Virus record (IMG/VR): IMGVR_UViG_2671180846_000026
Strand: one strand, 5' to 3'
Origin: a virus
Taxonomy: Duplodnaviria; Heunggongvirae; Uroviricota; Caudoviricetes
Length of the DNA stretch: 4,217 nt
The notes below the pieces were generated by a model. The model had not been told where the DNA came from, ran no database searches, and saw only the letters and a program-made list of their open reading frames with translations. Position 1 is the stretch's first letter; each line of letters starts with the position of its first letter. Shown here in pieces: positions 113 through 4,217 of this stretch. The position numbers were made by a program, and so were the translations under genes.

Positions 113-700
113 TCAAATCATCTTCTCGCGTTGCAGTAAACGATGGCAGCGACTGCACAATGTCCGCCACAGTTTCTGTTTTAATATCTTCCTGTGTTGC
201 ATCTTTCTGTACCGGTAACGAACACCGGCTGGCTGAGGAAAGGCTTTACCATCGGTTTCCGCTACCGATTCAACTTTCGGCTCTGCTGGTAAATTATCAC
301 CTGGTATGCAGTAACGAATTTTACCGTTCTGGTTTACGCGAATCAGACGACCTTTGCTGATTGCCATTGCCAGCGTTGAAGCAACTTTGCGGGATGTTGT
401 ACCGAACAGCGTAGCCAGTTCATCCGCCGTTTGTGGTCCGCGTTGTTCAATCGTCGCGGTTAAATCGCACTCTGAGATTTTCGCTTCTGTTGCCGTGGTG
501 GTTTCTTCTGGCGCTGGCTGTTCCTGCTGAACGTTGTTATCAGCCACACGCCAGGTGTATACGCTTTTATCAACGAAGCCAGCCTTTTTCAGTTCCCACA
601 GCTCGTTCAGTACTTCTTCACGACTGATATCAAGTCGCGCAGCCAGCTCTACCGACGTGGCTTTTCCCATCGCTTTCAGTGCGTCAAAAACAGTCTCCAT
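113..700 (-). CDS. Conserved lambdoid-prophage protein with N-terminal winged-helix-like segment (possibly DUF1627 family); C-terminal ~35 aa probably out of frame
   Basis: ATG at 700..698 with strong SD (GGAGG, 6-nt spacer) 33 nt downstream of the P-like stop. 195-codon ORF. N-terminus ([28 protein letters not shown]) resembles a wHTH. The basic tail ([29 protein letters not shown]) is rich in rare codons (AGA, AGG, ATA, TTA, CGG) while the alternate frame over 95..245 uses typical codons. Family name is from memory, unverified. Confidence 0.55.
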
Positions 701-733: not shown

Positions 734-1399
734 TCAAACAAAACCAGCCGCTTTCCGGCGTTCATATTCCTGTTTCAGCAACTCAATTGGCGTTGGCCCC
801 GACGGGCGTTTGGGGGCCGCCAGTTGTCGCCGGACTGGCGGAACGCTCAGGCCGTTACTAACATGCTTTGCCCATTTCGTCAGTTGCCGTTCTGCAAGCC
901 GTTTTAATTCCCCTTCGGTCATCTGGCGCTCAATCCCCTTTGAACGCATCTCGAGGCAAATGTGATACAGCACAGGCTGAGACCACGGGTACTTATCACT
1001 TCCGTCGTATCGCCAGGACTCATTGCGCCAGCGGCGGTACTCCTCCATCACAGCATCCACCGTCAGACCGAATGGATTGGCTCCGCTTTTCGAAATCAGT
1101 GCCACAAACTCAGCCAGGTCCGGAGGCCATGTTTCACCCGCCCGGCAGCGGTCCATGCACTGGCGGCAGACCTGCCGGATTTGCTGCTCAGTCATCGCGC
1201 CAATCTGTGCAATCCAGAGCTTCGAAGGTGCGGCCCCGTTCTTCTGGATCCAGCGGTTCGAATAAACCACCCCCATGAGTTCCCACAGCTTCCAGGCCGT
1301 TTCCGTCGCTGATAAATCCGTTTTCACGTTCCCACTGCTCACGTGCTGCCCGAATTTCCTGAACTGCCCGTGATGCGGTGCCACCTGGTGCTGCTGCAT
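734..1399 (-). CDS. Replication protein P-like (lambda P family helicase loader)
   Basis: 221-codon ORF. ATG at 1399..1397 has an SD (AAGGGG, 6-nt spacer). C-terminal two-thirds resembles recalled lambda P (YPW motif, ELKR/ELRR, C-terminal KAAGFV vs KGASV region). Start is uncertain: in-frame ATGs at 1276 and 1195. The 1195 start forms ATGACTGA with the O-like stop, a coupling-type overlap; the 1399 start implies a 212-nt out-of-frame overlap with the O-like gene. Confidence 0.65.
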   Translation of the reverse strand: MQQHQVAPHHGQFRKFGQHVSSGNVKTDLSATETAWKLWELMGVVYSNRWIQKNGAAPSKLWIAQIGAMTEQQIRQVCRQCMDRCRAGETWPPDLAEFVALISKSGANPFGLTVDAVMEEYRRWRNESWRYDGSDKYPWSQPVLYHICLEMRSKGIERQMTEGELKRLAERQLTKWAKHVSNGLSVPPVRRQLAAPKRPSGPTPIELLKQEYERRKAAGFV

Positions 1400-2228
1400 G
1401 GTTTACCCCTTTGCTGACTGGTTTAACCTGCGCCCTGACGTGATTTACGTGACGGGCGAATTTCTGCTCCCACTGAATCTGCGTAAACACTTTCCCCTCC
1501 GCTGCCCAGTAGTCCCGGAAGGCGGCAAGTTCAGCAGGTGTAAATTCTGTCTCCGGCAAAGCCATCCCCCACAACGCAGCCCGTCGTCGAAAATCCCGTG
1601 ACGGATACCAGCTATCGCTCATCGGGAATTTTCCGATGGGTTCGCTCAGGCCATACAGGAATACAGGGGGGGCTGCCTGTAACGACAAAACTTCCTGCTC
1701 ACTGGTCGGAGCACTCTCGCGTGCGTTATGTGTGGGGTTTAGATCTTTGGGTTCCTTTGGGTTCCGTGATCCGTTTTTGGGTGTCTTTGATGGAAAATTT
1801 GGGTGTCTTTGGTTATTTTCCATGCAGCTAAGAGTTCTGTTTTTGGGTCTGTTTTGTGCTGAAACATAACCATTTTCGGTACTGTTTTTATTAACAGCAC
1901 CAATTTTACCCACCTTTAAAGACTCCCGTTTTTGGGTGTATTCAGGCTCGGCAACACTTTCTTCTACACCGATAAGTCGGTACACCACAATTTGCTTTGT
2001 TCTGCCTTTTCTCTCACCGGTATCAACAATTAACCCAATCTCCATCAGGTGTCGTAAGCTGTCCTGCACAGTCTTTTTGTTCAGTTCCGTTACTTCTGCC
2101 AGTGCAGATACAGACGGGTATGCACACAAATCGGCACCGCACATATCAGCAAGCCAGGTCAATACTGACTTACTGGATGAACTGCCGGTTTTCACCTTTT
2201 TAGCCCATCGTAGTGCATCGATACTCAT
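1188..2228 (-). CDS. Replication initiator, O-like (N-terminal HTH DNA-binding domain, low-complexity P/K/N-rich linker encoded by the iteron region, acidic C-terminal tail)
   Basis: ATG at 2228..2226 with SD (AGGGG, 5-nt spacer). The track's longer ORF begins at a TTG at 2303 with no support. N-terminus MSIDALRWAKKVK...LAEVTELNKKTVQDSLRHLMEIGLI is a typical phage replication-protein HTH. Sits between the cII-position gene and the P-like gene as in lambda O-P. Contains the iteron array. Stop TGA at 1190..1188. Confidence 0.7.
   Translation of the reverse strand: MSIDALRWAKKVKTGSSSSKSVLTWLADMCGADLCAYPSVSALAEVTELNKKTVQDSLRHLMEIGLIVDTGERKGRTKQIVVYRLIGVEESVAEPEYTQKRESLKVGKIGAVNKNSTENGYVSAQNRPKNRTLSCMENNQRHPNFPSKTPKNGSRNPKEPKDLNPTHNARESAPTSEQEVLSLQAAPPVFLYGLSEPIGKFPMSDSWYPSRDFRRRAALWGMALPETEFTPAELAAFRDYWAAEGKVFTQIQWEQKFARHVNHVRAQVKPVSKGVNHAAAPGGTASRAVQEIRAAREQWERENGFISDGNGLEAVGTHGGGLFEPLDPEERGRTFEALDCTDWRDD
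1745..1939. repeat. Iteron-like direct repeats plus AT-rich tract; putative phage origin of replication embedded in the O-like gene
   Basis: Core TTTGGGT at 1748, 1758, 1776, 1798, 1842 and 1931. Perfect tandem 10-mers CTTTGGGTTC at 1745..1754 and 1755..1764. Perfect 14-mers TTTGGGTGTCTTTG at 1776..1789 and 1798..1811 (22-bp period). AT-rich tract about 1860..1920. Same layout as the lambda ori inside gene O. Confidence 0.55.
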
Positions 2229-2672
2229 ACGAACCCCTGGCAGACATTTGTTTATCTGCAAAGTAATATTGGTATTGCTGACGATACGCGTGCTTGAAAG
2301 CAATAGCTTTTTCTATAAGCTCGTCAGTCTCACGTTCCACAACAACTGGATCCGCAAAAAGCAGCCCGGACTCCACCACATCGCCATATTCTTTGTTTAA
2401 CCCGGCGATCATGTACGTAATGCTTTTTCCGTCAGTAATTTCACAATACAATCTGAAATCGCTGATCCGGATAGCCTCCATAATTGCCGGAATCAGCGCC
2501 GTGAATTTGTCACGCTTATCTCTGGTGTCGATAGCTTTCCAGCGTTCGAATATCTTCACCCGGTTAACGCCCAGCGCCCGTTGATCAACCTCGCCATCAT
2601 TAAACGTGACGCGTTGAACATCGATGTTCGGGCGTTCTTTCAGAGCCCAGAATGCTTCCGTGATTAATATCG
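2200..2672 (-). CDS. cII-position regulatory protein (possibly CP76/YdaT-like CII analogue); 5' end lies in the N-run
   Basis: Open, well-codon-adapted frame from the N-run to stop TAA at 2202..2200 (157 codons visible). No ATG, GTG or TTG near its 5' end, so the start must lie in or before the masked stretch. Position between Cro-like and O-like genes matches lambda cII. Family assignment is by position and recollection. Confidence 0.45.
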
Positions 2673-2722
2673 NNNNNNNNNNNNNNNNNNNNNNNNNNNN
2701 NNNNNNNNNNNNNNNNNNNNNN
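2673..2722. other. Run of 50 N (assembly gap or masked sequence)
   Basis: Directly visible. Interrupts the minus-strand coding region between the Cro-like N-terminus and the cII-position ORF, so the track's 228-aa read-through ORF (2200..2886) is partly an artefact of translating N. Confidence 0.99.
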
Positions 2723-2886
2723 TTGGGGTCGTACTGAAGTTCCCCGCCGGATGCCTCTTGCAGGCGCATCGCGCGACCTTCAGGAACCAGTTCCCCCCAT
2801 GCAGCAACGCTTGCCAGCCTAACTCCTGCGACATTGGCAAGCTTTGTTTTGCTGCCAAAAAACGCTATAGCATCAATTTTCAACAT
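2723..2886 (-). CDS. Cro-like HTH regulator (DicC/Cro family), 3' end hidden in the N-run
   Basis: ATG at 2886..2884 with SD (AAGGGG, 6-nt spacer). Translation MLKIDAIAFFGSKTKLANVAGVRLASVAAWGELVPEGRAMRLQEASGGELQYDP has an HTH (GSKTKLANVAGVRLASVAAW) and resembles recalled DicC. Divergent from the repressor gene across a 76-bp region. Confidence 0.65.
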
Positions 2887-2894
2887 ATCGAACC

Positions 2895-2912
2895 CCTTAG
2901 ATTTTCCTAAGG
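2895..2912. promoter_or_regulatory. Operator-like site 1 (perfect inverted repeat CCTTAG-ATTTTC-CTAAGG)
   Basis: 6-bp perfect inverted repeat with 6-bp spacer. Overlaps the predicted Cro-like SD and transcript start. Shares CTTAG-N-TTTT-N-CTA with sites 2, 3 and 4. Confidence 0.5.
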
Positions 2913-2941
2913 AAACTAGATCGTAGAGAAACCTAAGTCAA
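2913..2941 (-). promoter_or_regulatory. Putative sigma70 promoter for the Cro-like early operon (pR analogue)
   Basis: Minus-strand -35 TTGACT (plus 2936..2941), 17-nt spacer, -10 TAGTTT (plus 2913..2918). Predicted start near 2906 gives a ~20-nt leader carrying the SD. Confidence 0.4.
2921..2938. promoter_or_regulatory. Operator-like site 2 (18-mer; reverse complement ACTTAGGTTTCTCTACGA)
   Basis: 15/18 identical to site 3 when reverse-complemented. Lies in the spacer/-35 of the pR-like promoter and over the -35 of the pRM-like promoter. Confidence 0.5.
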
Positions 2942-2954
2942 GAAAAATTAGAAT
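2926..2954 (+). promoter_or_regulatory. Putative promoter for the repressor gene (pRM analogue), possibly giving a leaderless or near-leaderless mRNA
   Basis: -10-like TAGAAT at 2949..2954 ends 8 nt before the ATG at 2963. No SD before the ATG. Weak -35 (GAGAAA, 2926..2931) as in activator-dependent lambda pRM. Confidence 0.3.
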
Positions 2955-2962
2955 TACCTAAT

Positions 2963-3370
2963 ATGAAAAACGAAACCTTCGGTGCTCGCCTCTTATACAG
3001 GCGAAAAAAATTAAAACTGTCTCAGGCCGCATTAGGTAAGCTGGTCAAAGTGGCTCACGTAACAATTTCTCAATGGGAAAGAGATGAAACACAGCCAGCG
3101 GGGAAGAGATTATTCGCACTGAGCCAGGCGCTTCAGTGCTCGCCGACTTGGCTTCTTTTTGGAGATGAAGATAAGCAACCAGGCGAACCGATCCCAGATA
3201 ATCAGCCAGTCAATCTGACAGAAGATCAAAAAGAGTTGCTTCAACTGTTCGACGCACTGCCTGAGTCAGAGCAAAAGGCTCTGTTGTCAGAGATGCGTGC
3301 TCGAGTTGAGAATTTCAACAAACTTTTTGAAGAACTACTCAAAGCTCGCAAAAGAAGCGCAAATAAATAA
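2963..3370 (+). CDS. dicA: HTH-type prophage repressor, DicA-like (XRE-family HTH, no LexA-like S24 peptidase domain)
   Basis: 135-aa ORF, stop TAA at 3368..3370. HTH (LSQAALGKLVKVAHVTISQWERDE) and C-terminal segment (CSPTWLLFGDEDKQP...LPESEQ...EMRARVENFNKLFEELLKARKR) closely resemble recalled E. coli Qin-prophage DicA (also 135 aa), roughly 60% identical by eye. A homologue rather than K-12 dicA itself; symbol denotes family. Confidence 0.8.
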   Translation: MKNETFGARLLYRRKKLKLSQAALGKLVKVAHVTISQWERDETQPAGKRLFALSQALQCSPTWLLFGDEDKQPGEPIPDNQPVNLTEDQKELLQLFDALPESEQKALLSEMRARVENFNKLFEELLKARKRSANK

Positions 3371-3443: not shown

Positions 3444-3461
3444 GCTTAGGTTTTTCTACGC
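3444..3461. promoter_or_regulatory. Operator-like site 3 (GCTTAGGTTTTTCTACGC)
   Basis: 14/18 identical to site 1 and 15/18 to reverse-complemented site 2. Immediately upstream of the -35 of the downstream promoter. Confidence 0.5.
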
Positions 3462-3468
3462 AAAAAGC

Positions 3469-3498
3469 TTGACCATAACTCTTAGGCTATTCTAAATT
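3469..3498 (+). promoter_or_regulatory. Putative sigma70 promoter for the downstream plus-strand operon (pL / dicBp analogue)
   Basis: -35 TTGACC (3469..3474), 18-nt spacer, -10 TAAATT (3493..3498). Flanked and overlapped by operator-like sites 3 and 4. Sits about 80 nt upstream of the 3578 start. Confidence 0.45.
3480..3497. promoter_or_regulatory. Operator-like site 4 (TCTTAGGCTATTCTAAAT), degenerate copy
   Basis: 12/18 match to site 3 including the CTTAGG half-site. Overlaps the spacer and -10 of the pL-like promoter. Confidence 0.35.
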
Positions 3499-3577: not shown

Positions 3578-3934
3578 GTGGGCGAAGTCAAACATCAGAA
3601 TGGAAGGCGTCCAGGGATCAGCAAAGAAACAGCGATGGCGCTTTATATTGATATCAGCGCCATTGCCGGACAGGTAAGAATTATCAGAGCGGTAACTAAG
3701 CGGTATGCGCCTTTACTTCAGAAAGTCTCTGGTGAGTGCACCGAAGATATTGTCAACGATTTCGTCATCAAACTGCGAGGACTCATCTTCAGTTACAAGG
3801 TGACCACAATTTTTGCAGATGGCTCCCGCGAAACTGTCAGAGCCCTGCGGCTTAAAGGATGTGTCAAAGACTTAGCCACCACATTCTGGGCAAGAAAACT
3901 TGATTGTATTCATAACCAATTTCCTCTCGAGTAA
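3578..3934 (+). CDS. Hypothetical protein (118 aa from GTG; 99 aa if ATG at 3635), first gene of the putative repressor-controlled early-left operon
   Basis: Only long ORF in either strand over 3371..4005. GTG at 3578 preceded by AGAGGA with 7-nt spacer. Contains several rare Arg/Gly codons (AGA x4, AGG, GGA), typical of acquired genes. I do not recognise the protein. Confidence 0.5.
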   Translation: MGEVKHQNGRRPGISKETAMALYIDISAIAGQVRIIRAVTKRYAPLLQKVSGECTEDIVNDFVIKLRGLIFSYKVTTIFADGSRETVRALRLKGCVKDLATTFWARKLDCIHNQFPLE

Positions 3935-4005
3935 CAGACCCCTCAGAGGATACCACCTCGCCTGACGTGGTTAAAAGCAGGCAGCGCTAACCACAAGGAG
4001 CCGAC

Positions 4006-4217
4006 ATGCAGAAACGAGAACCCGTCATCATCGCGCCAGACTATACCGATGATGAACTTTATGAGTGGATGCACCAGAAAATTAAGGCAGCGCAGGACCT
4101 GAAATGGGCCAATGAAGCCAGGGCTAAGCAGGCTGAAAATCTGTCCGCTCTGGAGCAGGATATCACCAATCTGGAAAAAGCAGCGGCATTAAGCATTGCC
4201 AGAATGATTACATACCC
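4006..4217 (+). CDS. Hypothetical protein, partial (3' end beyond window); predicted helical/coiled-coil, N-terminus MQKREPVIIAPDYTDDELYEWMHQKIKAAQDLKWANEARAKQAENL
   Basis: ATG at 4006 preceded by strong SD AAGGAG (3995..4000, 5-nt spacer). Open for 70 codons to the window end with typical codon usage. Absent from the ORF track because no stop lies in the window. Confidence 0.6.
   Translation, partial: MQKREPVIIAPDYTDDELYEWMHQKIKAAQDLKWANEARAKQAENLSALEQDITNLEKAAALSIARMITY

Follow-up and report, generated by a model that had tools for sequence, protein, structure and literature searches.

A 50-N run at the cro/ydaT joint of a Qin-type lambdoid immunity region very probably stands for 126 bases covering two ordinary, overlapping genes

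The window analysed here, a stretch of 4,217 nucleotides from a virus of the Caudoviricetes (IMG/VR record IMGVR_UViG_2671180846_000026), contains a single N-run, which lies at 2673..2722 and consists of exactly 50 N. A minus-strand open reading frame (ORF) of 228 aa, 2200..2886, spans this run and includes 18 X codons in the ORF list. This raises the question of whether a Cro-type regulator is fused here to the protein encoded at the position of lambda cII, or whether two separate genes have been brought into one frame by the way in which the sequence was put together. The features that meet at the N-run are the following:

2723..2886, minus strand: 5' part of a DicC/Cro-type regulator gene (P22_Cro), with the ATG at 2886, codons 1-54 and two bases of codon 55.
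2673..2722, no strand: N-run, very probably an assembly or scaffold spacer that stands for 126 nt; the only N-run in the window.
2200..2672, minus strand: 3' part of a YdaT-family gene, from the second base of codon 27 to codon 183, followed by the stop codon at 2200..2202.

The initial annotation of this DNA had described coding sequence in the same frame on both sides of the 50 N, with the strand unstated. This is confirmed for the minus strand, where the ATG at 2886 and the stop codon at 2200..2202 share phase ((2886-2202) mod 3 = 0). The chance expectation of such an agreement is one in three. Two further ORFs of the list, 2664..2858 (-) and 2624..2737 (+), also cross the N-run in other frames, which indicates that read-through of this kind arises easily. 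The designation of the site as a Cro/cII junction was a fair one, given that the fragment upstream of the N-run matches Pfam P22_Cro with 47.2 bits (cutoff 30.2), and the fragment downstream matches the YdaT family (YdaT_toxin, PF06254) with 25.3 bits, close to the 24.8 bits of the resolved 183-aa protein and by a small margin above the cutoff of 21.

The distance between the two flanks in relatives was determined by megablast of window 2200..3000 versus 5,426 complete E. coli genomes, in which 2,058 records matched. In the best 25 of the 2,058 matches the flanks are 100% identical to the window, and all 25 span 877 nt versus 801 nt in the query, which is the length that results when 50 N are exchanged for 126 bases (801-50+126). 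In E. coli E2865 (NZ_AP018808.1, locus L001) the left flank is identical at 2672/2672 positions and the right flank at all but 2 of 1200, and 126 nt lie between the two, at 1746468..1746593 of the chromosome. The window differs from this strain by a few substitutions and by a single 1-nt indel well to the right. Over its full length, the window shares 99.8% identity with E2865 and other O26:H11-type chromosomes, that of the reference strain 11368 included. All E. coli chromosomes with a match of 99.8–100% to the window, O26:H11 str. 11368 among them, show the spacing of 126 nt.

The same spacing was found farther from the window. In a survey that used 120 nt of flank per side as the query, and for which 60 records were taken evenly along the ranking of 1,028 matches, 53 of the 54 records matched by both flanks have 126 nt between them, one has 125 nt and none has 50 nt. 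Escherichia albertii NBRC 107761, a lone contig match to the 32 nt abutting the N-run, also has 126 nt between the flanks, with 2 substitutions. Ten independent assemblies encode an identical DicA-like protein, and in these the 183-aa YdaT gene was called in 10/10 and the 75-aa P22_Cro gene, overlapping it by 17 nt, in 9/10. In six of the loci that were fetched (L001 and five of these ten assemblies), both flanks are exact and the hidden segment is identical to that of E2865.

The number of bases between the flanks decides the frame. The difference between the two lengths (126 − 50 = 76) is 1 mod 3, and for this reason the two coding stretches, which are in phase 0 across 50 N and in phase 1 across 126 nt, truly lie in different frames. 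The agreement of phase in the window is created by the length of the placeholder, and at the true length the two stretches are out of phase. The length of the N-run (50) is unequal to the real distance between the flanks in resolved relatives (126 nt), and complete genomes contain near-identical, collinear counterparts of the flanks in uninterrupted sequence. On the strength of these sequence comparisons, it is almost certain that the 50 N are a spacer of arbitrary length replacing 126 real bases, and that the 228-aa ORF is an artefact laid over two ordinary genes. The initial annotation had counted an arbitrary gap length, a coincidental frame and an artefact of reading through N among its alternatives, and the 126 nt and +1 phase of near-identical resolved genomes bear this out. 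What is said here of the content of the gap is taken from relatives and not from a direct reading in the source strain.

The 50 N would then be a placeholder joining two contig ends of a draft assembly, with a length that carries no information, and an ORF caller that takes NNN as an amino acid would give rise to the spurious 228-aa ORF. The fixed-length N spacers of scaffolded drafts offer a close comparison. They share with this site a pure N-run, a round length, collinear flanks and a true length (126) that departs from the one written (50), and the N-run of the window shows no difference from them.

In the resolved relatives, the hidden stretch contains the junction of two overlapping genes. 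In the RefSeq annotation, the genes that meet at the junction of E2865 code for a 'Cro/CI family transcriptional regulator' of 75 aa and a 'toxin YdaT family protein' of 183 aa, with a 17-nt overlap; two separate genes that overlap by 17 nt are annotated in four diverged alleles. Two ordinary separate genes, the outcome that had been expected to make the junction unremarkable, are what the resolved sequence of the relatives holds. Translation of the 126 nt of E2865 on the minus strand gives the Cro end ...KVYDEYRKAKRAGRLNNENHH and the YdaT start MKITTEQVCEALDTWVCRPGMTQEQAT..., the C-terminal end of Cro reading ...DPKVYDEYRKAKRAGRLNNENHH in the minus-strand translation. In the +1 frame, the YdaT start reads MKITTEQVCEALDTWVCRPGMTQEQAT-ILITEAFWA... 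and runs without a break into the downstream coding sequence of the window.

In all relatives the Cro stop is located 64 nt into the 126-nt stretch and the YdaT ATG 48 nt into it. The ydaT ATG precedes the cro TGA by 14 nt and the YdaT frame is +1 with respect to that of Cro, which gives the overlap of 17 nt (ATG…TGA). Three diverged alleles preserve this overlap; in one of them, L013, an unrelated 88-aa HTH regulator replaces the DicC-type Cro. By analogy with the relatives, the minus strand of the stretch hidden in the window would carry ...AAAGTTTATGACGAATATCGTAAGGCAAAGCGGGCGGGGCGGTTGAACAATGAAAATCACCACTGAACAGG..., and would comprise dicC/cro codons 55-75 (the last 21) with the TGA of the 75-aa regulator, as well as the start of the 183-aa protein, from the ydaT ATG up to part of codon 27.

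The downstream ORF had been described as having no start codon outside the gap. This is loosely true in that the genuine ATG falls in the hidden stretch, although an in-frame GTG at 2559 and an in-frame ATG at 2481 do exist, at least 38 codons inside clear coding sequence that reaches the edge of the gap. Neither a P_RE-like promoter nor a terminator, an operator or an inverted repeat was detected when the resolved junction was scanned, and the window gave no match in Rfam. Judging from the geometry of the two genes and from what is generally known of gene overlaps in bacteria, translation of YdaT is probably coupled to that of Cro through the short overlap.

The alignment of alleles places a mosaic joint inside the hidden stretch, approximately 8 nt upstream of the ydaT ATG. 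The near-identity of allele L013 extends through ydaT and ends abruptly at the unrelated regulator gene (joint positions compared: L001 3036..3060, L013 883..910). The 88-aa regulator of L013 ends with NNENH-x-stop, a tail that is common to DicC-type proteins and is encoded by the overlap. The sharing of this tail indicates that each upstream regulator takes its last ~6 codons from the ydaT module. Among E. coli genomes, this ydaT 5' end is found joined to regulators that carry at least four different annotations, and homology among these variants always stops 12-36 nt beyond the ATG.

The hidden 126 nt, present in 2502 of the 5426 genomes, are more widespread than the region around them, whose 801 nt are fully covered in 978 records; each of the closest (O26-type) genomes has them at 2-3 places. 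A repeated segment bounded by divergent sequence is a typical fork site in a short-read assembly graph. The break at this point is probably due to the hidden segment being a module boundary that several prophages of one genome share in multiple copies. The one alternative joint that was characterised, of the L013 type, is found in only 19 genomes, none of them O26.

The break in the assembly could also have been caused by an insertion of more than 126 nt, such as an IS element, or by a rearrangement, specific to the source strain and located at the cro/ydaT joint, where it would have disrupted one of the two genes. Copies of IS elements often cause contig breaks in short-read assemblies and the joint is a recurrent point of recombination, which gives this explanation some footing. 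Nonetheless, it is improbable, given that a simple insertion would leave contig ends that abut in the reference, and the absence of 126 nt suits a collapsed or unresolved shared segment better. In addition, no insertion is found at the joint in the sampled complete genomes (the best 25 matches and the 54 surveyed), and the flanks stay collinear with the relatives.

Were the gap exact, the source strain would carry a private deletion of 76 nt, and DicC(1-54) would be joined in frame through a linker to YdaT(28-183). If true, this would be a natural fusion of Cro to a CII equivalent that hard-wires both early regulators into one polypeptide. The agreement of phase across the 50 N is the one observation that speaks for it, and chance would produce this in one case out of three. 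A spacing of 50 nt is found in none of the relatives examined (the best 25 matches, the 54 sampled, the 10 assemblies and E. albertii), the flanks are 100% identical to those of genomes with 126 nt, and fifty is a round number typical of a placeholder. The deletion would moreover remove the YdaT start with 27 N-terminal residues, and also the Cro C-terminus. The hidden fusion proposed by the initial annotation is contradicted by the TGA stop, the separate ATG, the +1 shift and the 17-nt overlap of the resolved relatives, and the chance that it exists in the source strain is very slight. A length-preserving mask over 50 real bases that hold a stop and a restart, for which there is nothing beyond the original suggestion, is just as implausible, since the known sequence stops at codon 55 of Cro on one side and codon 27 of YdaT on the other, 50 nt are too short for the 21 + 27 missing codons, and the relatives, with their 75-aa and 183-aa genes over 126 nt, place the Cro stop and the YdaT ATG 64 nt and 48 nt into that stretch.

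With the N-run read as an arbitrary spacer, the site matters as quality control only. Arbitrary N spacers can put adjacent genes in phase, and ORF callers that cross the N then produce fused 'proteins' which can be mistaken for new domain architectures. The DicA-type, DicC/Cro-type and YdaT-family genes themselves are known from earlier descriptions, and thousands of E. coli genomes contain them.

Upstream of the N-run, the regulator gene can be assigned with the help of its resolved counterpart. The 75-aa protein matches NCBIfam DicC over 75/75 positions with 167.6 bits (cutoff 130) and the structure of P22 Cro (1rzs) with E = 6.4e-7, and is by these matches a full-length member of the DicC subfamily. 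Operator binding and repression of dicA have been described for the DicC of K-12 and of O157 (PMC10448788). The dicC-like ATG at 2886 (-) is divergent from a DicA-type gene that starts 76 nt away:

2963..3370, plus strand: intact gene of a DicA-type (CI-analogue) repressor, 135 aa (NCBIfam DicA; HTH_3).
2887..2962, no strand: control region between the divergent dicC-like and dicA-like genes, 76 nt, with three operator-like palindromes.

The 135-aa repressor matches NCBIfam DicA over 135/135 positions with 241.6 bits (cutoff 101). Candidate operators of the form CTTAG-N6-CTAAG are located between the two genes at 2896-2911, 2922-2937 and 2947-2962, and two more palindromes of this kind are found downstream of dicA, at 3445-3460 and 3481-3496. 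The window contains 6 matches to the pattern versus 1.35 expected, a figure to be read in the light of the pattern itself having been derived from the window. A direct repeat is also present in the control region. In the Qin-type immunity region, DicA and DicC are the analogues of CI and Cro, and three operators lie between dicA and dicC (PMC10448788). The layout of the palindromes, with three between the genes and two past dicA, agrees with the O_R-like and O_L-like arrangement published for DicA (PMC10448788).

The likeness to the Qin dicA–dicC region of E. coli K-12 and its STEC relatives is extensive. Both have a 135-aa DicA-type repressor divergent from a 75-aa DicC/Cro-type regulator, three operator-like palindromes between the genes and more past dicA, and ydfC and dicB downstream, the latter two seen in the resolved relative E2865. 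Nothing substantive differs, and past dicC the early operon of the window is intact (ydaT-family, O-like and P-like genes). What the window contains is an ordinary, well-known lambdoid immunity region of the Qin/DicA–DicC type, with genes that are already described.

Downstream of the N-run, the YdaT-family gene (2501..3052 in L001) is positioned on the minus strand between the cro-type gene and the replication genes, and the 183-aa form is annotated or called in 11 resolved loci. The 183-aa protein has no sequence match in the PDB at E ≤ 0.01, and its best matches there are weak ones to the YdaT structures 8bt1 (E = 0.21) and 3c4r (E = 0.34); no NCBIfam model matches it. These scores make it no more than a distant relative of the YdaT of CP-933P, whose structure has been characterised and which has a POU-like HTH domain and a tetrameric architecture. 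YdaT has been regarded as a functional equivalent of CII, from its position and from experiments with CP-933P (PMC9986795, PMC5917428). The lambda CII family is absent among the Pfam matches at E ≤ 0.01, and the YdaT-family protein is a positional analogue only of lambda CII.

The inverted-repeat operator motif of CP-933P YdaT, TTGATT-N6-AATCAA, shows no enrichment above chance in the locus, which has 5 matches versus 3.9 expected by chance; one match with 3 mismatches straddles the ydaT ATG. Operator specificity is expected to vary among members of the YdaT family (PMC9986795). The ydaS–ydaT regions of Rac and CP-933P have the same arrangement, in which a YdaT-family gene occupies the cII position between a Cro-type gene and the genes for replication. 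The Cro of those regions is of the YdaS type, whereas that of the window is of the DicC/P22_Cro type and scores 18.8-20 bits with YdaS_toxin, below the cutoff of 30. A region that bears operators separates ydaS and ydaT in CP-933P; in the type of junction found in the window, the two genes overlap by 17 nt instead. The order of genes (repressor, cro, cII-position gene, O, P) is that of the lambda cro–cII junction. With respect to the P_RE region of lambda, the junction differs in having no intergenic spacer, and no promoter-like site or repeat was detected in it.

The next gene of the same minus-strand operon overlaps the 3' end of the ydaT-family gene by 29 nt:

1188..2228, minus strand: gene of a DnaT-domain replication protein at the O position (L001 annotation 1489..2529; DnaT domain, 60.8 bits).

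The order on the minus strand is dicC-like, ydaT-like, DnaT-domain O-like and lambda-P-like. The gene at the O position is annotated with 346 aa (start at 2228), versus the 371 aa of a TTG-initiated ORF, 1188..2303 (-). The start of the P-like gene, 734..1399 (-), is ambiguous, with 221 aa in the ORF list and 140, 153, 180 or 221 aa across records.

A DUF1627 gene, 113..700 (-), matches its Pfam family with 144.7 bits and is frameshifted in the window. The frameshift corresponds to a 1-nt indel at ~220/221 with respect to alleles L003, L006, L009 and L012, which have longer products. E2865 carries the same allele as the window, annotated there as a frameshifted pseudogene. At the other end of the window, the ORF 3578..3934 (+) has no Pfam match; in relatives, a 99-aa hypothetical protein (3635..3934) is annotated between the dicA-like gene and ydfC. 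Six substitutions with respect to E2865 fall between 3680 and 4091. At 3973, an A is missing in comparison with E2865 (a 1-nt indel); this position is intergenic and precedes the start of the ydfC-like gene at 4007.
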